Shown here: positions 3,470-21,583 of the stretch, one piece after another | Layout of the letters: the number at the start of each line of letters is the position of its first letter | Numbering within the stretch: the stretch's first letter is position 1 | Assembly: GCF_963921235.1 (NCBI RefSeq) | Contig: NC_086097.1 | Location: forward strand, 77,750,001-77,814,000 | Origin: Mobula hypostoma | Lineage: Eukaryota | Length of the DNA stretch: 64,000 nucleotides | Direction of reading: 5' to 3' | Position numbers and translations under genes: made by a program | The notes under the pieces: model-generated | Seen by the model: only the letters and a program-made list of their open reading frames with translations | Databases searched by the model: none | Told to the model about the DNA's origin: nothing

Positions 3470-4635
3470 GCTAAGCTGCCTCTGAGCATGTTTTGATTTG
3501 TTCTAAAATAATTTCCACATTCAAGAAATTGCCCTCCGTAATTTCTGCCACTTCCAACAAGATTTCAGACACATCTCCCTGTCTCCTTTCAGCACTCCAT
3601 ATCTTTCCCTTCGGTATAGCTTTGTTCTTTACCTCCACCAGTCTCTCCTTCTCACTGCACTTCCCCATGGAAATGCAGAAGATGAAGTACTCCCCCTTTA
3701 ATATTTCCATTCCCACCATCATGGGACCCAATCCTTCCAGGTGAAATGGGAATTTGTGTGTATTTCTTCCAAACTTATGTATTGCATTTGCCCCTAATGA
3801 CATGGCATCTCCTACATGGGAGAAACCAAATACAGATTGGGAAACCAGCTTGTAGAAGCTCTCCATTCAGTCTGTCAGGGTGCCCTTGAGTTTCCAGCTT
3901 CCTGTCACATTAATTCTCTACTCCACTCAGATGTCTCTATATGTGCTCTCCTACACTGTTCTAACGAGGCCTAACGTAAACTCCAGGAACAACGCCTCAC
4001 CTTCTGTCTTGGGATACTCTGCGGCCTTTAGGGCTCAATATTGAATTCAAACATGACATATATTCAGCCTTTCTTGTTTGTGTCAGAACTGAACAGAATT
4101 GGTCTATGTCATCCACTGGTAATGCTAATTCTCTTCTCCTTTGCCCTCTTCTCCCTGGCGTCATCAGGAGGAAGACGCTGGTGTCTCAGGACTCGCACTA
4201 CCAAGTTCAGGACAGTTCTTACCCCTCAACCATCAGGCTCTTGAACCAAAGTGGATAACTCCACTCAACTTCACTTACCCATCATTGAAATGTTCCCACA
4301 AGCAATGGTCTCACTTTCAAGGACTCTTCACCTCATGTCCTCGATATTTATTGATTGTTTATTTATTATTATTTTTTCTTTCTTTTTGAATTTGCTCAGC
4401 TTGTTGTCTTCTGAACTCTGATTGAACACGCAAGATGGGCAGTCTTTCATTGACTCTGTTATGGTTATTATTCTTTAGATATATTGAGTATGCCCACAAG
4501 AAAATGACTATCAAGGTTGTATATAGTGACATATATGTAATTCGGTAATAAATTTACTTTGAAATTTGAACTTTTAACTGTTACCTGATCTGCTGAGTAT
4601 TTCCAGCATTCTTTTTTTATTTCAGACTTCCAGTT
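3470..4635 (+). mobile_element. Old Penelope-like element (GIY-YIG remnant), interrupted by a Rex 3' end at ~4145-4577
   Basis: Decayed TIMGPNPSFQV..LYMGETKYRLG..QEQRLTFCLG..GLNIEF, colinear with 20840-21583. A pLTR-like motif 'cctgatctgctgagtatttccagcatt' resumes at ~4585. Confidence 0.7.
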
Positions 4636-6374
4636 ATGGTTGGATTTAGTTACTCACACTTCCTGCATGTTTTACCTGTTTTTAAATTTATAGTTCTCAT
4701 TTTTCTTGCTCTATTTATGCTCATCGAGACAAGTGAGTTAAGATTTATAAGCATTCATCTCCATCTCTGAGACAGCACCAAAAATAATTGTTTCACTTGG
4801 ACACTTTAACGTCCTCTCCATCACAGATATTTTCTTTACTCTCTCCAACACCCAACTCTCCGCAACTTAAAATAGCTTTCTTTTCTCACTTTTCCAATTC
4901 CATTAAATAATCAGTGACCTGATGTTAACGATATCAGTAAACACTCCAGTCAGTGATTAGCCGAGGTCTTCACTACTCAGCTAGGTGTACAACCTGGACT
5001 AGATGCTTTCCGTGTGATCATCCTCTTGAAGGGTATTCTCCCATTGGCCTCAGAGACTGAAATTGGTCAACTGGAGCCTTAAAAGGCATTGACCTCGTCT
5101 AGGAGCAAAAGCTTGTTTAACTTATGTCACTTAGTTTTGTTTGTAGGAGATGATAGCATTCAAGCCTTGTTTAGCTCAAAGCTGGTCCAGAATTGCCACT
5201 TTGCATATGAGATGACTTTTCAGAGGACTTGAAAACTTCTACAGATGTACCAGGGAGAGCATTCTGACTGGCTGCTTCATGATCTGGTATGCGGAGGGGT
5301 GGGGGAGTGGGGGGGGGTGGAGACGGGGATCCATTCAAACCAGACTAAGTCCCCAGATCCGCTCTCAGAGCAGACAGAGTAGACCCAACCCTCGGTCCTA
5401 ATTCATCATACCGGCAGGGCAAAAACACGCAATAGCAGGGTCAGTTCCCAGGCTCGGCACCGCAGAGAAAGGAATGAACATTCGCGGGAAAGCGAGCAAT
5501 ATCAACCCGACCCTTGCTTCTGTTCCTGACACTTGGGCTTCCAGCCTATTTGTGCTGCCATTTTAATTGTCCAAACACTGGGTAGTGCTTTGACACCGCA
5601 TCCCACACCCCCCCACCCCGCCCCAGAGCCAAAATATGCTCGGGCTGCCCAGCCCGAAGCTATTCTCAATCTCACCAAATTGCTTCAGTAAATATGTTGT
5701 AAGTAATGGTCTTAGACTCTTTCCTTCATCTCTTGGTTTATTCAAGGCTTCTGGTTGGAGGAGACATTGAATGGTTTCATAAAATCCATGACAACTGAAG
5801 CATATTCATTCAGGTCCTCTGATGAGGCCTTGAACATAGCCTAGTCCATGACTCAAAACAATTCCAGTGGCCACCTCTTTGTTGTCCATAGCTCTAGTGC
5901 CTTGTTCTTTAGTCTCTGCCTGTATGCAGGTAGGAGAAACGCAAATGATCAGATTTCCCAAATTGCAGACTAGGGATGAAACAGTAAACATTCCTAACAG
6001 TAGTGTAGCACAGAGTGAGTTTGTTGGGATCCCTGGCACTGCAATTGATGTGGTGGTAGTAACTTGACAGAAATTTCTTCAAGCTAGCCTGAGATAAGTC
6101 CCCAGCAAGTATATGAAAAGCATTAGGTAAATTTCAGTTAATCTGGCTCTCCAGAATGCTTTGTAACTCCAGTCATATTTTTGGAAACAAATATTCCATT
6201 CTGAAAACCCTCAACAGAGTTGCAGAGTCTTTTAAAATTATATCCACATGACACAGTCACAGAAGCACATTATGCCCATGGCAGTATTCTGAACATCTCC
6301 CAGAAAGATCTAATCACCCAATGCTCATCCTGTTTCTTCTCAGGGCATGACTTCAGCATAAGCATCTATTGATA

Positions 6375-6578
6375 AAACTGAGTGAAATGCCCTGCCAGGG
6401 GTGGTGGTAGATATATTAGGGCATTTAAGAAACTCTTTGATAAGTACACGAATGATAGGAAATGGAAGGCGACGTAGAAGGGAAGAGTTAGGTTGATCTT
6501 ATTATAGTTTAAAGAGTCAGCAGCATCATAGGCCAATGGGCCTGGTTGGTGCAGTAGTGTTCTATGTTCTATGTTCTA
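6375..6578 (+). mobile_element. CR1 LINE 3' end
   Basis: LPGVVV..FKKLFDKY remnant followed by a (TTCTATG)n tail. Confidence 0.65.
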
Positions 6579-6969
6579 AAAGAGCACTTAAGAGTTTCAA
6601 AAGCTCACTTTGTGCCAAATTCCATCATATACAATGTTCATATCTCTCAAGTGCTTTTACCATATGAGGGTCGGTTAATCAGCTCATCAAGTTCATTCCT
6701 GCTTGTTTCCTTGTAACCTCTAACTTGCTAATCAACATCTCAATTCTCCTGTCATCCACCTACATCCGGAGCAATTTACAGTAGCCAGTTATCTACCAAT
6801 CAGTGTAGAGGTTTACTTTATTCCAGGTGCTTTGACACTTCTACAAGGGTTTGGTGGTTGCTATGATAGATTCAAGGTGTTAAGGGTCTCAGTGACTGAA
6901 CAACACAGTCACTAATGTCTGAGCAAAGCTAAACTGGTAGACTGAGCAGGCAAAGACACCAGTTCTGCT

Positions 6970-7318
6970 GGGAGAAAGACAAAAGGGGAGATAAAGGAGG
7001 GAGGGTTTCAGGATGAAGGATTTGAAGGCATTAAGGTGGGTCAGAAGGAAGGAGCAGTAAAGGGGGGAGGAAGGAGAGGGTCAAAAGAGTATGTTCAAAG
7101 AGGAGAAAGATGAGGGTGTGGAAGATGAAAGGGTCATAATCAAAGAGACATATAATAACACAGCATGATAACAGGCAGCAGTGGAGGAGGAGTTGGAGGA
7201 TGACGAGGCAGAGAAAGAGAGAAGGTGAAGAAAGAGGGCAAGGAGGCGGTGAAGGAGGAGGAGGAGGAGGGGAGGTGAAGGATCAGTGGGCCGAGAAAGA
7301 GTGGGTGAATGAGAGAGC
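6970..7318. repeat. Purine-rich (GA/GAG) low-complexity tract
   Basis: Strong G/A strand bias with (GAG)n runs, e.g. 7254-7270. Confidence 0.7.
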
Positions 7319-8029
7319 ATCTATACATGTACAATACAGGGCATTTTACTAATCAATCAACTTCCATTGCTGCTGATTTTATAGTCTGTGATTCTCTGAT
7401 ACCACCTGTTCCAATCTCTCAATTTTGTATCTCCATCTGCTTCATGTCACCAAGCCAATTATGCAGTGAGACAAATTACTGCCTTTAATTCCACAAAACG
7501 AACATTTTTTCATGTATATGGACCATTCACATTCACCAAATTAGTTTCCCGTTCACCTAAACGTGAGCTGAAACACTGACCTGACTGGCCCAGATAATTC
7601 TGAAACCATGTCGCAAGGCCTTGGAGCATTGTCAAGGAGTGCCAGAAGATGCCTTGCCCACTAACACCCTCTGGAAGCATTAACACCTTGAAACACTACA
7701 TGCAGGTCTTTGCCATCAGCCAAATTTTCTCATTATTTTTCAATGTCTCCACATAAAGAAATATTTAATGTCTTTGAAAAATAATCAATACATTTTTTAA
7801 GAATAACTTAATTAAATGAATTGGAGCATGGTTCTAAATAATTAAAAACACTTGACAAAAGTAACAATAAAGCAATGAATGTAACTTACTTTATGCTTCC
7901 ATTTCTTACTCAGATCTCTGTAACCCCTATCCACATTAAGGCTTACATACACTGTGCCTGCTCTAATGTAACGCACAGTCCGAGACCAAGTTATCCAGTG
8001 AGTTGCTGGAAAACCTTAGCAATCTACAC

Positions 8030-9170
8030 ATAAGATCATAAGACATAGGAGCATGATTAGCCAATCTGGCACATCGAGTCTGCTCCTCCATTCAATCATG
8101 GCTGATCCTTCTTTTAATCTCTTCGTCAACCCCAGTTCCCTGCCTTCTTCGATAACCTTTGATGCCATGTCCAAACAAGAAACTATCAATCTCTGCCTTA
8201 AATACACCCAATGACTTGGCCTCCACAGCTGGATGTGACAACAAATTCCAAATATTCACCAACCTTTGGCTAAAGAAATTTCTCCGCATCTCTGTTTTGA
8301 AAGGGCACCCATCTATCCTGAGGCTGTGCGCTTTTGTCCTCAACTCTCCCACCAAGGGATACACCCTTTCCACATCTACCCTGTCTAGGCCTTTCAACAT
8401 TCGAAAGGTTTCAATGAGATCCCCCCTCATCCTTCTGAATCCCAGCGAGTACAGACCCAGAGCCATCAAACGTTCCTCGTATGATAACCCTTTCATTCCT
8501 GGAATCTTCCTTGTGAACCTCCTCTGGACCCTCTCCAATGCCAGCACATTTTTTCTAATAATGAGAAAATTTGGCAGATGGCAAAGTTCTTCATGTGGCG
8601 TTTCAAGGACCCAAAACTCTTCACAATACTCAAGGTGAATCCTCACCAGTGCCTTATAAAGCCTCAGCATCACATCCTTGCTCTTGTATTCTAGACCTCT
8701 TGAAATGAATGCTAACATGGCACTTGCCTTCCTCACCACCGACTCAACCTGCAAGTTAAGCTTCAAGATGTTCTACACAAGGACTCCCAAGTCGCTCTGC
8801 ATCTCAGATTTCTGGATTTTCTCCCCATTTATAAAATAGTCTACACATTTATTTCTACTACCAATGTGTATGACCATGCATTTTCCAACGCTGAAATTCA
8901 TTTGCCACATTCTTGCCCATTCTCTTAATCTGTCTAAGTCCTTCTGCATCCACCTGTTTCCTCAACACTACCTGCACCCCCACCAATCTTCGTATCATCT
9001 GTAAACTTGGCAAAAAAGCCATCTATTCCATCGTCTAATCATTTATATACAGCATAAAAAGAAGTGGTCCCACATCGACCCCTGCGGAACACCACTAGTC
9101 ACTGGCAGCCAACCAGAAAAGGATCCTTATATTCCCCTCACTGCCTCCTACCAATCAGCCAATTCTCTAA
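8030..9170 (-). mobile_element. 5'-truncated CR1 LINE (RT C-terminal half + 3'UTR)
   Basis: 224-aa ORF 8092-8766 with LYKALVR.HLEYC, LERVQRRFT, RGDLIETF, RRNFFSQR; (TCTTATG)-type tail at ~8030-8046. Confidence 0.92.
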
Positions 9171-10477
9171 TGTATGGAACACAGCCAGTAAATTGCTGTT
9201 GTAACTTGGATATTAAGTTTAGGGCTTTCAGGCACACATAAGTGTCCCAAAACCTATCAACAAATTTGTTGAGAAACACCAGCGGTCCTGCATGGAATGG
9301 CCAGCAAAATCCTGGCCTTCAATTCTATTGATTCTGATGAACAAAGGCAAAAGTGCAAAGCTGTGATTCTGAGGAAATACGTGGTTCAAAACGCATCATG
9401 CAAAGGATGGGCCAATTACGTTTGCTTTCTATTACAGTTCTCATGTGGGAGAACAGATGTTGCATTTTGATTCATCCTGTCCAGTTGGAAGCCAGAACAA
9501 ATAAAAACCAAACACAATGAAGTAAATGAAGTTGGGATGAAGAATTCCAATACTTAAATTGTGGTGGCACATCTCAAAAATGTATCCTCTCTCTGAGGAT
9601 ATTCAGAGTTGTGGCTATTTATAATCTCATATGATTTTATGAGAATTTTACTTTCCTTCCAAATGTACATCCTAGTCAAGTATACCTCCAACAGTGCATT
9701 TTTGCAGTTTATTTTTCCACTGCCTTCAATAGTTCTGCTATACTCTCAGTTTCTACAAATAAGTTTCATAAACATAACGACAATGTTGCAAGCAAAGGGC
9801 TTATTAATGCCACAGAATAATTTCACTACTCTGTGCCCTTTAGTGAACTGGGTAAGATAGGAGCTATGGTAACCTTCATAGACATATGGTAACCAACCAA
9901 ACTAGACCAATGTTAAATATTGCTCAACACTTTGGAGAAACTACACTCCTTCTACTTCTGAAACTAGAAACACGCTACAAAATGATTTACAAGACATTGA
10001 TCTATCATCACTAACTTGTATTTTCTTAATCTACCTTCCCTGACCCCACCCCAGCTAAATGAATAAGCAAGTATTAAAAATTTCGTCACATTTTCAGTCC
10101 TCACATAGTGACAACAAAGGAAGCAGCACAGCTGTATTTTATCTCTTGTGATTTTACCTCAATTTCCCAGCTGAATTAATGACCCACTTGATTTTAAGCT
10201 CTTTGTTATAAAACCAGTCAAAAGTAACTCAGTGATATGTCACTGAAGCAGAATCCTTTCTTACAAAATAATGAGCTATCGAGTCTGACATAAATAAAAA
10301 CATATCAAATTGATGTGAGAGGAGCACCTAAAAGTAATGAGTGTCTTTGATTTCAGAGTTGACAGCAATGTTACAGTCAACATTAGTTGGCAATCAGGAG
10401 GGCCATTTTACACCGTATTTTCTCTGTAGAAACAGTGACGAATGAGGTGAATGGGTTGGATGTTGAGTATTTTGCTG

Positions 10478-15640: not shown

Positions 15641-15844
15641 AAGCTTGATTAAGTTTCAGAAAGGCCAAGCCTAATTGTTTGGATCAGCAAATAACGCCCA
15701 AAAAATGCCAGTGTAAGGCAACAAACTATACTTAACTATAAATTTCATGGCAATTGCGGGTATCAACTCATATGCTTCCTCTCCATCATCTGAAGTACCT
15801 TCAATAACTCCGAAAGACTGAGGTTTGGTAAAATACTGGAAGGC

Positions 15845-15926
15845 TTTTATTCGCAGTACAATACGACCTCCACGGTGAGTGTCTCCCCCGGACTGAAGGG
15901 GAGGGGCAAGGCGAACCACCTTTATA
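15845..15926 (-). promoter_or_regulatory. LTR core promoter and poly(A) signal: TATAAA, Inr-like TCAGT, AATAAA
   Basis: Minus strand: TATAAA at 15926-15921, TCAGT with its A at 15894 (32 nt downstream), AATAAA at 15851-15846. In the 5' LTR copy the TATA box reads CATAAA. Confidence 0.6.
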
Positions 15927-16019
15927 CAGGACTCTGTGGGAGGAGCCACAGGGGCAGTCAGCAGAGGTGTGTGTCCAGACAGTTAACCCAGTTACAACAC
16001 ATATATATGGTTTACCACA

Positions 16020-16035
16020 TTCACCCCTCTTTTTT
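16020..16035 (-). other. Polypurine tract of the Gypsy element
   Basis: Minus strand AAAAAAGAGGGGTGAA lies immediately before the TGTGG start of the 3' LTR. Confidence 0.85.
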
Positions 16036-16086
16036 TAAAAGAGTCCTGCAGGGTGAAGTGACTGACAATATTTACAACAAGTATAT

Positions 16087-18931
16087 TTACAGGTTAAGTC
16101 TATCAGGCGGTCGAGTCCGTCGCTGTGATCTACGTAGCACCGGCGGTGATTGCATCGGCGATGGCGGTTGTGCTGGCTCCGGCCTGACTTGAGGTGTCAG
16201 CACGTTAGGCGTTGTTAACCCTTCGTGCGTGTGCGTCGCGCCCGGTATGGGAGTGTCGTGTGGTGTCTGTATAGGGTTTGGGGTGCACGGTGTCTCGTAG
16301 GTACATACATTGGTGGGTACGGGGTCAATAGTCACCACGGAGTGTTCAGGGTAGGGGCCCGGAGCTCTTGCGGTCGCCAGGTCGCAGATGGAGACCGTGT
16401 CCTCCCGCCCATCAGGTAAAACCACGTAGGCATACTGGGGGTTCGCATGAAGTAAGTGGACCCTCTCGACCATCGGGGAGTATTTATTGCTCCTCGCATG
16501 TTTCCGGAGCAGCACTGGCCCTGGGGACGTCAGCCAAGTTGGTAGGGTGGTCCCAGTGGTCGACTTTCTGGGAAAAGAAAAGAGCCGCTCATGAGGGGTG
16601 GCATTGGTGGCTGTGTGTAACAGGGAGCGGATGGAGTGGAGTGCCTCGGGAAGGACCTCCTGCTAGCGGGAGACCGGCAGTCCCTTTGACCTGAGGGCTA
16701 AGAGTGTGGCTTTCCACACTGTGCCATTCTCCTTCTCTACCTGTCCATTCCCCCAGGGATTATAGCTCGTGGTCCTACTGGTTGCAATTCCCCTAGCCAG
16801 TAGATATTGGCGCAACTCGTCACTCATAAACGAGGACCCTCTGTCACTGTGGATATAGCATGGGTATCCAAACAGAGTGAAGAGCTTGCGCAGGGCTTTT
16901 ATAACTGAAGTGGTAGTGGTGTCGGGGCAGGGGATGGCAAAAGGGAACCGTGAGTACTCGTCGATAACGTTCAGAAAGTACACATTGCGGTCAGTGGAGG
17001 GAAGGGGGCCCTTAAAGTCAACACTCCGTCACTCAAAAGGGTGGGTCGCCTTGATGAGTTGGCCCTTTTCGGGTCGGTAGAAGTGCGGTTTGCACTCTGC
17101 GCTGACTTGGCAGTCCCTGGTCATCATCCTGATCTCCTCAAGGGAGTAAGGCAGGTTCCGGGCTTTCACGAAGTGGAAAAGCCGGGTGACCCCCGGGTGG
17201 CAAAGGTCTACATGTAGGGTGTATAGCCGGGTGATCTGCGCGCTGGCACATGTTCCCCGGGATAGGGCATCGGAGGGCTCATTGAGCTTCCCAGGCCTGT
17301 ACATGATGTCATAGTTATAGGTGGAGAGTTCGATTCTCCACCTCAGAATTTTATCATTTTTGATTTTGCTCCGCTGCTGATTATTAAACATGAACGCGAC
17401 TGAGCGCTGGTCAGTTAGCAGGGTGAACCTTCTGCCGGCAAGATAGTGCCTCCAGTGCCTAATAGCTTCCTCTATGGCCTGGGCCTCTTTCTCCACTGCA
17501 GAGTGCCGAATTTCAGGGCCTTGAAGGGTACGGGAGAAGAACGCCACTGGTCTTCCCACCTGGTTGAGGATAGCAGCCAGTGCGAAGTCGGAGGCGTCGC
17601 TCTCTACTTGGAAGGGAATGGCCTCATCCACCGCATGCATTGCTGCTTTGGCAATGTCCCCTTTTATGCGGCTGAAGGCCGCACGGGCCTCGGCTGAGAA
17701 GAGGAATGTGGTGAACTTGACCAGGGGGTGGGCCTTGTCTGCGTAGTTAGAGACCCATTGGGCGTAATACGAAAAGAAGCCCAGGCACCTTTTGAGGGCT
17801 CTGAGGGTGTTGGGAAGAGGGAGTTCCAACAGGGGGTGCATACGGTCGGGGTCAGGGCCAATGACTCCATTCTCCACGACACACCCAAGGATAGCAAGTC
17901 GGGTGGTCCCAAATACACACTTGTCCTTGTTATAGGTGAGGTTGAAAGATTTTGCCGCTTGGAGAAATTTTTGGAGGTTGTTGTCGTGATCCTGCTGGTC
18001 GTGACTGCAGATGGTGATATTATCCAGATATGGGAACGTGGCCTTCAGTTGGCACTGTTCCACCATCCGGTCCATTGCCCTCTGGAAGACAGATACACCA
18101 TTCATGACACCGAAGGGAACGCGCAGGAAGTGATAAAGCCTGCCGTCCGCCTCAAAAGCAGTGTAAGGGCGGTCCTCCTGGTGGATGGAGAGCTGATGGT
18201 AAGCGGATTTTAGGTCTATGGTCGAGTACACCTTGTACTGTGCTATCTGATTGACCATATCCGCGATGCGGGGTAGAGGGTACGTGTCGAGCTGCGTGAA
18301 CCTATTGATGGTCTGTCTGGCTATAGTCCACGACCATCCTATTCTTCTCCCCGTTCCGAACAACGACCACCTGCGCCCTCAAAGGACTTGTGCTTGTCTC
18401 AATGACCCCCTCCCTGAGCAGCCGCTGCACCTCCGACTTAATGAAGTCTCTGTCCCCCGCGCTGTACCTCCTGCTTTTAGTTGCCACAGGTTTACAGTCG
18501 GGGGTCAGGTTGGCGAACAGCGGTGGGGGAGCGATCCTGAAGGTGGAGAGGCCGCAAGTGGCGTCGGTAGTGCGGCAGTTGGCATGGTGTTGGGTGGGAT
18601 GTGCGGGTCGGTGTGTGTGTGTGTGTGTGGTCAGTAGTGGAGTACGTGACATATCTCTACAGAACTGGGGATTTACAACAGTAATTGGCGGGAGGGGCCC
18701 ATCATACTTCATTGTCACGCTTTTCAGGTGGCTCTGGATGTTGAGTCCCAATAGCACAGGGGCACACAGTTGAGGCAAGACCAGTAACGTAAAGTCTCGA
18801 TATTCTGTGCCCTGCACCACTAGCGTCGCTACACAGCCCTCCCGGATGTCTGTTGTATGCGACCCAGAAGCCATGGTGACCCTCTGACTTACTGGCCATA
18901 TCATGAGTCCACAATGCTGCACCGTGTCCGG
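16087..18931 (-). pseudogene. pol: Gypsy pol: protease C-half, RT, RNase H, integrase (HHCC-like + core)
   Basis: PVLLG (PR); RMVVDY, YPLPRI, IDLKSAYHQ, TAF, VPFG, YLDN (RT); SDASD, EKEAQAI, TDQRS, DALSR (RNase H); H..HPG..C..C, VDFKGP, VIDEYSRF, SDRGSSF, NGQVEKEN (IN). Frameshift near 18320; stops at 17029-17031 and 16663-16665. Confidence 0.95.
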
Positions 18932-19600
18932 GGGAGACACTCACCGTGGAGGTCGTATTGTACAGCGAATAAAATTGAAGCACCTTCAATGACTCCAAAA
19001 CACTGAGGTTTGGTAAAATACTGGAAGGCTTTATTCGCTGTACAATATGACCTCCATGACCACACGGTGAGTGTCTCCCCCGGATGGGGGGGAGGGGCAA
19101 GGCCAAATCACCTTTATGCAGGACTCTGTGGGAGGAGCCACAGGGGCAGTCAGCAGAGGGGCGTGTCCAGACAGTTAATCCAGTTACAACACATATATGT
19201 AGTTTACCACATCATCAAAGTAGTTTAAATTTGTGGCTAGATCAACAGGCCAAAGTCATTGCATTTGATGAAAGTTAGATATTATATCTCTGCCATTTTA
19301 AAGGGAGAAAATACTCTGTTTTATAAACTGATTCAGCAAGCTCTAAATTTATCTCAAGCTAGTTCCAATAACAGAAAACATTCCCAAAGAACTCCACTAG
19401 ATCAGTTCGACATGATTTCCCTTTCGCAGATCTATGCTGACCTGCTTAATCACATTATTACTTTCTAAATACAGGTACTCCCTGCTTTTCGAATATTCGC
19501 TTTACAAAACCTCACTGTTACGAAAGACCTACATTAATAACCTTACATCAAAGTTGCTGGTGAACGCAGCAGGCCAGGCAGCATCTATAGGAAGAGGCGC

Positions 19601-19636: not shown

Positions 19637-19969
19637 AACTGAAGGAAGAGTGAGTAAGGGATTTGAAAGCTGGAGGGGGAGGGGGAGATCCAAAATGATA
19701 GGAGAAGACAGGAGGGGGAGGGATAGAGCCGAGAGCTGGACAGGTGATAGGCAGAAGGGGATACGAGAGGATCATGGGACAGGAGGTCCGGGAAGAAAGA
19801 CGGGGGGGGGGGGTGACCCAGAGGATGGGCAAGAGGTATATTCAGAGGGACAGAGGGAGAAAAAGGAGAGTGAGAGAAAGAATGTGTGCATTAAAAAGAG
19901 TAACAGATGGGGTACGAGGGGGAGGTGGGGCCTAGCGGAAGTTAGAGAAGTCAATGTTCATGCCATCAT

Positions 19970-21583
19970 GCTACCAACCTTATAGTTCCCACACCCCGCA
20001 CTTCCCGTTTCTACCTCCTACCCAAGATCCACAAACCTGCCTGTCCTGGCCGACCTATTGTCTCAGCTTGCTCCTGCCCCACCGAACTCGTTTCTGCATA
20101 CCTCGACACTGTTTTATCACCCCTTGTTCAATCCCTTCCGACCTATGTTCGTGACACTTCTCACGCTCTTAAACTTTTCGATAATTTTAAGTTCCCTGGC
20201 CCCCACCGCTTTATTTTCACCTTGGATGTCCAGTCCCTATATACTTCCATCGCCCATCAGGAAGGTCTCAAAGCTCTACGCTTCTTTTTGGATTCCAGAC
20301 CTAATCAGTTCCCCTCTACCACCACTCTGCTCCGTCTAGCAGAATTAGTCCTTACTCTTAATAATTTCTCCTTTTGCTCCTCCCATTTCCTCCAAACTAA
20401 AGGTGTAGTTATGGGCACCCGTATGGGTCCTAGCTATGCCTGCCTTTTTGTTGGGTTTGTGGAACAATCTATGTTCCGTGCCTATTCTGGTATCTGTCCC
20501 CCACTTTTCCTTCGCTACATCGACGACTGCATTGGCGCTGCTTCCTGCACGCATGCAGAACTCGTTAACTTTATTAACTTTGCCTCCAACTTTCACCCTG
20601 CCCTCAAGTTTACCTGGTCCATTTCTGACACCTCCCTCCCCTTTCTAGATCTTTCTGTCTCTGTCTTCTGAGACAGCTTATCCACTGATGTCTACTATAA
20701 GCCTACTGACTCTCACAACTATCTGGACTATTCCTCTTCTCACCCTGTCTCTTGCAAAAACGCCATCCCCTTCTCGCAATTCCTCCGTCTCCGCCGCATC
20801 TGCTCTCAAGATGAGGCTTTTCATTCTAGGACGAGGGAGATGTCTTCATTTTTTAAAGAAAGGGGCTTCCCTTCCTCCACTATCAACTCTGCTCTTAAAC
20901 GCATCTCCCCCATTTCACGTACATCTGCTCTCACTCCATCCTCCCACCACCCCACTAGGAATAGGGTTCCCCTGGTCCTCACCTACCACCCCACCAGCCT
21001 CCGGGTCCAACATATTATTCTCCGTAACTTCCGCCACCTCCAACGGGATCCCACCACTAAGCATATCTTTCCCTCCCCGCCTCTCTCTGCATTCCGCAGG
21101 GATCGCTCCCTACACAACTCCCTTGTCCATTCGTCCCCCCCATCCCTCCCCACTGATCTCCCTCCTGGCACTTATCCGTGTAAGTGGAACAAGTGCTACA
21201 CATGCCCTTACACTTCCTCCCTTACCACCATTCAGGGCCCCAAACAGTCCTTCCAGGTGAGGCATCACTTCACCTGTGAGTCGACTGGGGTGATATACTG
21301 CGTCCGGTGCTCCCGATGTGGCCTTTTATATATTGGTGAGACCCGACGCAGACTGGGAGACCGCTTTGCTGAACATCTACGCTCTGTCCGCCAGAGAAAG
21401 CAGGATCTCCCAGTGGCCACACATTTTAATTCCACATCCCATTCCCATTCTGACATGTCTATCCACGGCCTCCTCTACTGTAAAGATGAAGCCACACTCA
21501 GGTTGGAGGAACAACACCTTATATTCCGTCTGGGTAGCCTCCAACCTGATGGCTTGAACATTGACTTCTCTAACTTCCGCTAG
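19970..21583 (+). pseudogene. Penelope RT + GIY-YIG endonuclease, 5'-truncated, one in-frame stop
   Basis: One frame carries FYLLPKIHK..GRPIVS, DVQSLYTSI, GVVMGTRMGPSYA, RYIDD, then TGA at 20669-20671, YYKPT, CxxC, VIYC..LYIGET..R..EH..E..GLN. Confidence 0.95.

Follow-up and report, generated by a model that had tools for sequence, protein, structure and literature searches.

Why does a Gypsy retrotransposon in the genome of the ray Mobula hypostoma carry, at the place of a tRNA primer-binding site (PBS), a 49-nt inverted copy of part of its own LTR? The window, i.e., the whole stretch of 64,000 nt that was analysed (contig NC_086097.1, positions 77,750,001 to 77,814,000), contains on its minus strand a gag-less, protease-truncated Gypsy element of 3.4 kb, flanked by a 5-bp target-site duplication (TSD). 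The short length and the loss of gag go beyond the description given in the earlier note on this locus. The features of the element, in window coordinates, are as follows.

15786..15790, target-site duplication, left copy, TCATC (plus strand); the same 5 bp are found at 19212-19216
15791..16019, minus strand, 3' LTR of 229 bp, TGTGG...CTTCA, containing TATAAA, the Inr-like TCAGTC, the R segment 15893..15845 and AATAAAA
15845..15893, minus strand, LTR segment that is the reverse complement of the block (48/49), from the inverted-repeat scan
15860..15845, minus strand, last 16 nt of that LTR segment, TGTACTGCGAATAAAA on the element strand, corresponding to the complement of the family's PBS
16020..16036, minus strand, polypurine tract (PPT) AAAAAAAGAGGGGTGAA, adjoining the 3' LTR; the same tract lies 5' of the 3' LTR in copies L034-L036
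16087..18925, minus strand, decayed pol in four stop-bounded frames: C-terminal part of protease, RT, RNase H and integrase
18926..18932, minus strand, deletion junction, a 7-nt microhomology (CCCGGAC) common to the block end and the canonical protease sequence
18926..18974, minus strand, 49-nt inverted block, i.e., the 16-nt family PBS and an additional 33 nt of antisense R, from the inverted-repeat scan
18959..18974, minus strand, portion of the block corresponding to the normal PBS of the family, TTTTATTCGCTGTACA; the same 16 nt occur in canonical copies
18975, minus strand, single spacer base A between LTR end and PBS, in the context CA/A/TTTA
18976..19211, minus strand, 5' LTR of 236 bp, TGTGG...CTTCA, reading AATAAAG instead of AATAAAA and carrying an 8-nt insertion in R at about 19056-19063
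19212..19216, target-site duplication, right copy, TCATC, a perfect match to the left copy

The two LTRs of the window copy are 88.7% identical over 239 columns. Pfam analysis of its pol returned gag-asp_proteas (weak), RVT_1, RT_RNaseH and rve, and neither gag nor the protease DTG motif was found in the window element by ORFs, Pfam or alignment to full-length copies. A DIRS-like or tyrosine-recombinase element, which the inverted repeats might suggest, was rejected on account of the rve integrase in pol and the 5-bp TSDs. On the element strand (18974..18926), the block reads TTTTATTCGCTGTACAATACGACCTCCACGGTGAGTGTCTCCCCCGGAC. In a 6-kb scan for inverted pairs it formed pair I1 (arms 15845-15893 and 18926-18974, 49 nt, 98% complementary, 48/49), and its match to the 5' LTR was split by the 8-nt insertion into I2 (27 nt, 96%) and I3 (22 nt, 100%). 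Both had been described in the earlier note, which placed the inverted LTR copy one base after the 5' LTR and matched it to the 5' LTR apart from an 8-nt insertion, and both descriptions were confirmed. Since the other six inverted pairs of the same scan were shorter and less complementary (18-27 nt, 71-86%), the 49-nt block is far beyond what chance would produce. Direct reading of the sequence after the window's 5' LTR also bore out that no TGG-initiated tRNA site is present there. TATAAA lies at 15926..15921 in the 3' LTR, 32 nt before the A in TCAGTC as previously reported, and TCAGTC fits the Inr motif quoted as TCAKTY in the excerpts of PMC3601003; the block extends to within one base of the RNA start predicted from these two elements.

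Past the block, the element enters the second half of protease directly, with no leader. At this junction the canonical protease reads LFDTGSTESFIHPDTVQHCG, compared with a window sequence beginning at ..PDTVQHCG, and the alignment to full-length copies begins 7 nt inside the block, with partial similarity over 23 nt (CACGGTGAGTGTCTCCCCCGGAC vs CACGGAGAGTTTTATCCACCCGGAC). Among the 40 best-scoring genomic places, this block-to-protease junction was covered by the window alone. Since the other 39 lack the junction, the copy in the window is an aberrant product that stands alone, and an amplified non-autonomous subfamily carrying the junction was rejected on the same ground.

The family to which this copy belongs is Ty3/Gypsy, with more than 800 copies of about 4.4 kb in the order gag-PR-RT-RNaseH-IN, LTRs of about 230 bp and no chromodomain; the hallmarks of Ty3/Gypsy (Metaviridae), namely LTRs, TSD, PPT and the domain order PR-RT-RNaseH-IN, are all found in it. 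Regarding the chromodomain, the integrase C-terminal ORFs of the window and of L031 matched no Pfam family, and none was present in the precomputed Pfam lists of 120 relatives. In full-length relatives (about 4.4 kb), no more than the initial 16 nt of the block are present, TTTTATTCGCTGTACA, and gag follows; three full-length-looking copies read LTR-A-TTTTATTCGCTGTACA-TTTTAAAGC-ATG, and the distance from LTR to gag ATG in canonical copies is only 26 nt. The canonical junction (the 16 nt, then TTTTAAARC and the ATG of gag) had 830 genomic matches with up to 3 mismatches, the extended junction had 61, and both reversed-pattern controls had 0; 30 canonical junctions were read directly in the examined loci. 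All 16 nucleotides of the PBS (16/16) are complementary to the element's own LTR segment, which ends exactly at AATAAAA. The conserved post-LTR start complementary to the LTR AATAAAA, for which the earlier note had proposed to search, was indeed found, 16 nt long and at 830 canonical junctions. A standard TGG-initiated, tRNA-complementary PBS in intact relatives, which the same note had set against its own proposal, was found after the 5' LTR neither in the window copy nor in canonical copies (LTR-A-TTTTATT...). Judging from these sequences, the family most likely primes its own reverse transcription and does not use a tRNA. A cellular RNA with the 3' end ..UGUACAGCGAAUAAAA would speak against self-priming. 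Contigs from four sequencing runs, aligned to the canonical copy L036, gave greater depth over the LTR than over gag; among the runs listed as containing the sequence, none was recorded as RNA.

All 61 extended loci were classified by the point at which the inverted arm stops. LTR palindromes with the arm stopping at the U3 edge accounted for 44 of them; the arm stopped at 158-163 nt in 3, continued into inverted PPT or pol in 8, and ended at 49-53 nt, at the TATA/Inr-predicted RNA start, in 4 (the window copy included), the remaining 2 being of other forms. The inverted-repeat by-products make up about 7% of the family's PBS-bearing junctions (61 of 891). A clear 5-bp TSD was seen in 23 of the 29 intact solo palindromes, with one more ambiguous, and the composite copies L003, L034 and L036 have perfect TSDs. 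Both arms of a palindrome had a subfamily allele in common in 24-25 of 26-27 cases, vs 13 expected, and both LTR haplotypes of the palindromes were also found in canonical LTRs, which together argue that palindromes arose at least twice. Arms were barely more alike within a palindrome (0.917) than between palindromes (0.890), and just 7 of 54 arms had their partner as nearest neighbour; what is supported is thus two or more origins, not an independent origin of each palindrome. A search for arm-specific columns in the palindromes found none, the largest frequency difference being 0.19. Overall, the 61 extended copies have the appearance of reverse transcripts that misfired; no description of LTR palindromes made by strong-stop snap-back was found in the literature searched.

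The explanation that we prefer, with a probability of roughly 0.7, is that this family of more than 800 copies self-primes, and that the block in the window is a copying error in which strong-stop DNA was over-extended and then jumped at a microhomology. By analogy with Tf1, the R segment of the genomic RNA would fold back on the PBS, beside the U5 stem, and RNase H would cut after AAUAAAA, the freed 3' end priming minus-strand DNA. The sole hint of an RNase H cut site is the invariant ..TAAA/RCC context in the clade. Since the PBS is complementary to R, the 3' end of plus-strand strong-stop DNA (U3-R-U5-A-PBS) could anneal to R of a plus-sense molecule and be extended; in the predicted DNA fold (z -4.6) this end is paired and recessed, and would thus be extendable. 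In the window copy, the extension would have run 33 nt beyond the PBS, the template being the self-primer, if this had not been removed, or else the 5' R of an RNA; the product is identical whether a retained primer was copied or the DNA annealed to another R, and sequence does not tell the two apart. The displaced 3' end (..CCCGGAC) would then have annealed to minus-strand DNA at a 7-nt match immediately past the protease DTG codons, and synthesis would have resumed there, a jump that would have deleted about 1,060 nt comprising the leader, gag and the first half of protease. With its LTR ends normal, the product would have integrated with the 5-bp duplication. The 405-bp LTR palindromes of the family may be the outcome of the same error, with snap-back on the strong-stop DNA itself and a stop at its U3 5' end, as may the copies with long inverted internal segments. 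An autointegration or LTR-circle junction for U5-A-R' was rejected, as the junction is the normal LTR-A-PBS junction, extended. It speaks against the explanation that it gives no route from a snap-back hairpin to a two-ended, integrase-competent 405-bp duplex, and that the window LTRs differ by the R insertion, also a subfamily marker, which is a poor fit to a simple single-template history.

An alternative history, unlikely in our estimate but the likeliest of the rivals considered, is that block and deletion were both made in the chromosome after a normal integration, not by reverse transcriptase but by replication template switching, i.e., fold-back at the 16-bp inverted repeat and a microhomology-mediated jump. 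This inverted repeat with its 55-nt spacer and the 7-nt microhomology junction are typical substrates of that process, and the TSD would be preserved under either history. Nonetheless, the arm stops exactly at the LTR edge in 44 of the 61 extended copies, with no run into host flank, which argues for a free LTR-ended molecule as template. The solo palindromes and composite copies also have their own TSDs at many sites, evidence that comes from family copies other than that in the window.

Self-priming, the first half of our preferred explanation, was examined through the covariation of R and PBS. In the ray family, R TACAGCG was combined with PBS CGCTGTA at 461 loci and R TACTGCG with PBS CGCAGTA at 37 loci, the latter with a distinct U5; a mixed combination occurred at only 3. 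At a second pair (G:C to T:A), both partners had changed in 6 of 7 loci, as they had in L046. True LTR pairs were present at 20 loci in metagenome contigs whose pol is about 50-60% identical, and in 17 of these loci a perfect complement of an LTR segment, 11-19 nt long, stood right after the 5' LTR, compared with 1 of 23 control windows, located 300 nt downstream, that reached 10 nt; the pairing was kept in at least 8 sequence-unrelated lineages of these contigs. When 11 clade representatives were compared, 142 of the 143 cells of pairs 1-13 were Watson-Crick, pairs 4-13 showed 2-4 pair types each, and the frame ..TAAA/RCC..CA/A/TTTA.. was invariant in all 11. It is to be noted that covariation among related copies partly reflects shared descent, and that, since a self-primed element recopies its PBS from R in each cycle, R:PBS covariation does not separate mechanism from selection. 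Since the pairing is kept by compensatory changes in ray subfamilies as well as in distant lineages, we interpret it as self-priming of the Tf1 kind throughout the clade, in a Gypsy group that has no chromodomain.

Folding predictions were made for the leaders also. The ray leader RNA folded at -43.9 kcal/mol (z -2.8), with the R:PBS duplex predicted to stack on the U5 stem; the same fold was predicted for 8 of 8 foreign leaders (z -3.8 to -7.3), with an RCCU..AGGY hairpin predicted to abut the arm in 6 of the 8. In the ray leader, the predicted native 16-bp duplex covers AAUAAA. Thus, the suggestion in the earlier note that a leader duplex hides the 5' poly(A) signal holds in the prediction, but for a duplex of 16 bp, and the native leader duplex of about 49 bp that it had envisaged is not the state of the family. 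The covered AAUAAA might be taken to mean that the 16-nt complementarity is structural or regulatory (hiding the promoter-proximal AAUAAA, packaging or dimerisation) and that another primer is used, the more so as AATAAA or ATTAAA ends the arm in 7 of the 11 clade representatives. We consider this improbable, a little more so than the chromosomal history. The site falls exactly at the obligatory PBS position, LTR CA plus A, in 11 of 11 representatives; the 26 nt between LTR and gag ATG leave no room for another primer site; the arm ends with GTTAAA or TTTAAA, which are non-standard poly(A) signals, in 4 of the 11; and the aberrant copies are the very products that extension from the R:PBS pairing predicts.

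The length of the block bears on the nature of the primer. The earlier note had proposed that the primer was the element's own first 50 nt or so, ending at AATAAAA, and that it was copied in full. Of this, the self-complementary PBS ending at AATAAAA stands, and a copy of R extending approximately as far as the RNA 5' end is in keeping with the 4 of 61 arms that stop at 49-53 nt; the 49-nt length is not native, as the site is 16 nt (830 vs 61 junctions). That such a primer is regularly copied in full, the 49-nt block being the element's regular state, is therefore very unlikely. The block does start exactly where the family PBS starts and ends within one base of the TATA/Inr-predicted RNA start, and three other copies also stop at 49-53 nt; against this are the 830 canonical junctions with 16 nt and a gag leader vs the 61 extended ones, only 4 of which stop near 49 nt, a window junction that is unique among the 40 best places, and the coincidence of the block with the loss of gag and half of protease. 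Under our preferred explanation, of an occasional over-extension, the 49-nt stop could mark the cap site at the predicted RNA start, to which we give slightly less than an even chance. Just 4 of the 61 extended copies end at 49-53 nt, which counts against a cap-site stop. Since the window's endpoint falls inside the 7-nt microhomology with protease, it may be set by homology and not by the RNA end. Lastly, although inverted repeats are prone to misassembly, an artefact is hardly credible for a junction type that recurs at 61 places, spread over many contigs and differing in flanks and TSDs, and for a window copy with a coherent TSD and a clean microhomology junction.

To our knowledge, self-priming has been experimentally documented only for fission-yeast elements; beyond fission yeast, most inferences of it concern the chromodomain-bearing Tf1/Sushi group, along with some plant lineages. 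The present results extend the same self-priming logic, with strong comparative support, to a different-looking Gypsy clade with a different geometry, i.e., an internal R segment ending in ..TAAA, in which the family's own by-products indicate the primer end and possibly the RNA start. A fuller reading can be offered, tentatively and with the odds tilted a little against it as a whole: a distinct kind of self-priming would operate in a widespread chromodomain-less Gypsy clade, from sea-anemone-type hosts to sharks and rays, with the primer 3' end at a conserved ..UAAA/RCC, often the poly(A) hexamer itself, such that a single RNA duplex would at once generate the primer and mask the promoter-proximal poly(A) signal. 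The ray primer would be a capped leader, about 50 nt in length, and the ray genome would hold graded fossils of misfiring, from a cap-site run-off of about 49 nt through 405-bp snap-back palindromes integrated via two U3 ends to elements with inverted interiors. If true, plus-strand strong-stop priming on R is the price of the design, and the intermediates of reverse transcription have left a natural record in an animal. A cost of the design is that dozens of integrated 405-bp palindromes are potential sources of hairpins or dsRNA and potential fragile sites. The question is then raised of how self-primed elements prevent their plus-strand strong-stop DNA from continuing into R or annealing to it. 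For annotation, LTR finders that require a tRNA site would miss or mislabel this abundant family.

Among known systems, the closest is that of Tf1, Tf2 and Tj1 of fission yeast and the Tf1/Sushi group, in which reverse transcription is self-primed, with the first 11 mRNA nucleotides given as the primer of Tf1 (excerpts of PMC4600332, PMC5445492, PMC6317226 and PMC6934838). As far as these excerpts go, the ray family resembles that group in having no tRNA site and a post-LTR PBS complementary to its own LTR transcript, in a U5 stem between the pairing partners (predicted in the ray), and in a PBS that varies together with its complement. In contrast to the first 11 nt of Tf1, the complementary segment in the ray clade is 13-19 nt long and ends with ..TAAA (AAUAAAA in the ray). 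In the ray, the TATA/Inr-predicted start is situated about 33 nt upstream of this segment, and the primer would accordingly be about 50 nt; this predicted start, together with the four arms that stop at 49-53 nt, suggests that in the ray the complement is not the very 5' end of the mRNA, as it is in Tf1. A self-primer that ends at the poly(A) hexamer was not found described in the literature searched, outside which lay Butler et al. 2001 on vertebrate elements. The chromodomain is the hallmark of the Tf1/Sushi chromoviruses, and the ray family lacks one; it is by this feature, not by an RT/IN tree, that the family is set apart. Similarity to Mag C, in the excerpts of PMC3601003, is limited to the clade's short LTRs (127-244 bp) and TGT..ACA ends, and serves as a lead only.

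The fossils also have parallels. About half of the Tf1 cDNA keeps a copy of the self-primer as a single-stranded PBS tail, the Tf1 RT adds untemplated bases, and the tails lead to unusual insertions, including integrase-independent insertion at PBS homologies (PMC11042837, in the portion summarising Atwood-Moore et al. 2006). By that account, the Tf1 tail is the 11-nt PBS and its insertions are integrase-independent, whereas the ray fossils extend beyond the PBS along R, generating inverted repeats, and most have integrase-type 5-bp duplications. In HIV-1, TAR-dependent self-priming (snap-back) by minus-strand strong-stop DNA is known from in vitro reactions (excerpts of PMC6088434); there, as proposed for the ray, strong-stop DNA folds back via R complementarity and is extended by RT to a dead-end hairpin. 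According to the same excerpts, the HIV-1 reaction concerns the minus strand and yields products in vitro, whereas in the ray it would be the plus strand that folds, driven by the complementarity of PBS and R, and the products are found integrated in the genome.

The 49-nt antisense LTR block described in the earlier note is real and stands as written there. It belongs to a Gypsy element on the minus strand of the window, laid out as follows:

19211..18976, minus strand: 5' LTR (TGTGG...CTTCA)
18974..18926, minus strand: inverted block of 49 nt, preceded by a single A after the 5' LTR
adjoining the 3' LTR, minus strand: polypurine tract (PPT), AAAAAAAGAGGGGTGAA
16019..15791, minus strand: 3' LTR (TGTGG...CTTCA)

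The block is complementary to the 3' LTR at 15845-15893 in 48/49 positions (inverted pair I1), and its match to the 5' LTR is in two pieces, split by an 8-nt insertion (pairs I2 and I3); all remaining inverted pairs in a 6-kb scan were at most 27 nt long and at most 86% complementary. The two LTRs are 88.7% identical to each other, and the whole element is bracketed by a perfect 5-bp target duplication (TSD). The insertion, located in R of the 5' LTR at 19056-19063 (compared with 15866-15872 of the 3' LTR), is absent from both the 3' LTR and the block, and resembles a decayed form of the 10-nt duplication GGAGGTCATG that marks some LTRs of the family. The same asymmetry was seen in another genomic copy, L032 (5' LTR 239 nt, 3' LTR 229 nt); either the LTRs were unlike at integration, by use of strong-stop DNA of a second co-packaged genome, or they were converted later. 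Such asymmetry in both copies makes LTR divergence a poor clock here. A 241-codon open frame on the plus strand (19946-20671), some 730 bp outside the element past its 5' LTR, has a weak RVT_1 match of 26.7 bits that is below the Pfam cut-off, and is part of a different retroelement fragment adjoining the Gypsy copy.

The window element is 3.4 kb long, as against ~4.43 kb for full-length relatives. Downstream of the block, stop-bounded frames code for the last part of protease and then for RT, RNase H and integrase, with no gag among them; the ~1,060 nt missing comprise the leader, gag and the N-terminal half of protease including the DTG codons, the lost canonical protease region reading ..LFDTGSTESFIHPDTVQHCG... 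The deletion junction falls in a 7-nt identity, CCCGGAC, common to the block end and the canonical protease sequence, within a looser similarity of 23 nt. When the block and its downstream sequence were compared with the best 40 genomic places, the junction was covered by the window alone, the others being ordinary internal sequence; the copy therefore reflects a single event and does not represent a subfamily.

Full-length-looking family members, which the earlier note had proposed to align, bear out its expectation of a start complementary to their own LTR: they read 5' LTR, A, TTTTATTCGCTGTACA, TTTTAAAGC and ATG, leaving no room for a tRNA site between the 5' LTR and the gag ATG, which in L032 starts a frame of 326 codons that includes a zinc knuckle. 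The canonical primer-binding site (PBS) of 16 nt is the opening 16 nt of the window's block and the exact complement of the LTR segment TGTACAGCGAATAAAA, and the flanking bases are unable to pair on either side. Genome-wide search with 33-nt patterns at no more than 3 mismatches found this canonical junction 830 times and an extended junction, in which antisense R runs beyond 16 nt, 61 times, with 0 matches to reversed-pattern controls. The 49-nt block of the earlier note does start at the family PBS, but the family site itself is only 16 nt long. In 30/30 canonical copies read (e.g. L038-L066), gag carries, ~180-240 nt after the PBS, a stretch resembling it, T(C/T)TATTCGCTGAT, that shares 9-11 identical nt with it; the resemblance could be coincidental, or the stretch could offer the R hexamer region a second place to pair.

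All 61 extended copies were sorted by where the inverted arm ends:

U3 5' edge (170-183 nt), giving a 405-bp palindrome U3-R-U5-A-R'-U3': 44 copies
158-163 nt: 3 copies
running on into inverted PPT and pol: 8 copies
49-53 nt: 4 copies (window, L028, L095, L176)
other rearrangements: 2 copies (L003, L084)

Among the solo palindromes, 29 have a complete LTR; 23 of these show a clear 5-bp TSD, and one further case is ambiguous. A few arms carry some PPT-complement bases past U3, as would be expected from copying of a residual PPT primer. At subfamily-diagnostic columns the two arms of a palindrome agreed in allele in 24-25 of 26-27 cases, where 13 were expected. Canonical 5' LTRs show both haplotypes as well, and ordinary family members have therefore given rise to palindromes on at least two occasions. 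No column tells left arms from right ones, which argues against amplification of a single asymmetric master palindrome.

Four composite copies, each with a perfect TSD, share one plan: the LTR and A lead into an inverted segment, whose length differs between copies, followed by sense sequence up to a normal 3' LTR. The inverted segment is 49 nt in the window, ~180 nt in L003, ~4.1 kb in L034 and the whole element in L036; L074 follows the same plan, its fetched stretch ending before the 3' LTR. In L034 (element at 4582-9227, TSD GGTGC), two LTRs in direct orientation enclose an interior, PBS to 3' R, that is inverted throughout and stops 10 nt into the PBS complement, as would be expected from an RNA template with R-U5 already removed by RNase H. 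In L176, on another contig, the LTR, A and a 49-51-nt block are followed by an inverted piece (the last 17 nt of R, then U5-A-PBS-gag) that runs backwards from family position 549 to 169 and whose end coincides exactly with the first position of the 16-nt PBS complement, and then by sense gag from 559 onward. L003 has at 1392-1500, in place of most of the inverted U3 arm, an unrelated ~100-nt insert (..GACGAAGGGTCTCGGCCTGAAACGTCGAC..) that looks like a piece of another repeat.

The block is most probably a one-off by-product of reverse transcription, by a mechanism that we infer to be as follows. In a self-primed element, plus-strand strong-stop DNA would hold R and also, at its own 3' end, the PBS, and when this DNA was folded in silico the 3' end was predicted to be paired and recessed on R (z -4.6). 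Extended on itself, this strand would reach its 5' terminus at the U3 edge and halt there with a 175-nt arm; extended on the 3' R of genomic RNA, it would proceed into U3, PPT and pol; and with a retained self-primer or an RNA's 5' R as template, it would run off after ~49-50 nt. After the excursion, the strand would rejoin minus-strand DNA by homology, in the window at the CCCGGAC match in protease, and complete a two-LTR molecule acceptable to integrase. The stop at 49 nt may mark the cap site of the RNA: four arm endpoints lie within 4 nt of the predicted initiator (Inr), the window's own being ambiguous over 7 nt. Chromosomal template switching after integration is possible for this one locus, but would leave unexplained both the arms that end exactly at the LTR edge and the many TSD-flanked products. 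An assembly error is unlikely, because the same junction type occurs at 61 loci.

The R:PBS pairing has strong comparative support from sequence. Within the ray family, one duplex position has two states with both sides changing together: by self-complementary patterns, with every locus counted once, 461 loci had A in R and T in PBS, 37 had T in R and A in PBS (these form a sub-lineage marked by a U5 of its own), and 3 were mixed. At a second pair, G:C became T:A, with both sides altered in 6/7 loci and in L046. Pol relatives are 77-93% identical in rays and catsharks, and 55-60% in many ~4-kb contigs and in sea anemone. In a sample of 80 related metagenome loci, those of at least 4 kb were scanned, and direct-repeat pairs were found in 23, of which 3, being overlaps of contig ends within coding sequence and not LTRs, were set aside. 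In 17 of the 20 remaining loci the 5' LTR is immediately followed by a perfect 11-19-nt complement of an LTR segment, and in the other 3 the complement is imperfect; in control windows 300 nt downstream, 10 nt was reached in 1/23 loci. The pairing arms are unrelated in sequence from lineage to lineage; in 11 representatives, pairs 1-13 are Watson-Crick in 142/143 cells, and pairs 4-13 show 2-4 pair types each, within an invariant frame of arm end ..TAAA, RCC, a 36-66-nt loop, LTR end CA, one A and PBS start TTTA. The last bases of the arm are AATAAA or ATTAAA in 7/11 and GTTAAA or TTTAAA in 4/11, and the poly(A)-signal link is therefore frequent, not universal. In predicted folds, 8/8 foreign leaders form the R:PBS duplex (z -3.8 to -7.3), 6/8 with a small RCCU..AGGY hairpin stacked on it, and the ray leader folds alike with a longer U5 stem (z -2.8). 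A purely regulatory duplex does not fit its invariant position in the PBS slot. The window block sits on what is most likely a genuine clade-wide self-priming site, where priming and primer cleavage would take place.

Many of these metagenome relatives are on ~3.6-4.4 kb contigs whose two ends share an LTR or overlap in coding sequence (e.g. L113, L114, L121), as if multi-copy elements of eukaryotic hosts had been collapsed during assembly; some carry a bacterial 'DDE-type integrase/transposase' label in public records. Contigs of sequencing runs X1-X12, from six organisms, contained 21-46% of sampled words of a canonical copy, and close family relatives therefore exist in several sequenced organisms.

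Precedents for the proposed excursion come from two papers: in Tf1, about half of the cDNAs still carry the self-primer as a single-stranded copy, and the RT appends untemplated bases (PMC11042837); in HIV-1, the minus-strand strong-stop DNA folds back on itself via TAR in vitro (PMC6088434), whereas the ray proposal concerns the plus strand. The literature search, with key older papers on vertebrate self-primed elements outside its reach, returned no description of this self-primer geometry or of such palindromes. Tf1-type self-priming is defined (PMC4600332, PMC5445492 and PMC6317226) by three features, namely the lack of a tRNA site, complementarity of the PBS to LTR RNA of the element itself, and an intervening U5 stem; the ray family shares all three, the stem as a predicted fold. 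No chromodomain was found in the ray element or in the Pfam lists of 120 listed relatives, and the clade was therefore not placed in the Tf1/Sushi group. Unlike in Tf1, the complementary segment is probably not the first bases of the RNA: TCAGTC in the ray LTR fits the Inr motif TCAKTY (PMC3601003), and its A, 32 nt after TATAAA, is the predicted RNA start, the 16-nt segment beginning ~33 nt further on. From this predicted TATA/Inr start, the ray primer would be ~50 nt long and end in AAUAAAA. Self-priming here thus appears to differ from the known Tf1-type mechanism, both in the chromodomain and in the longer primer of the ray family.
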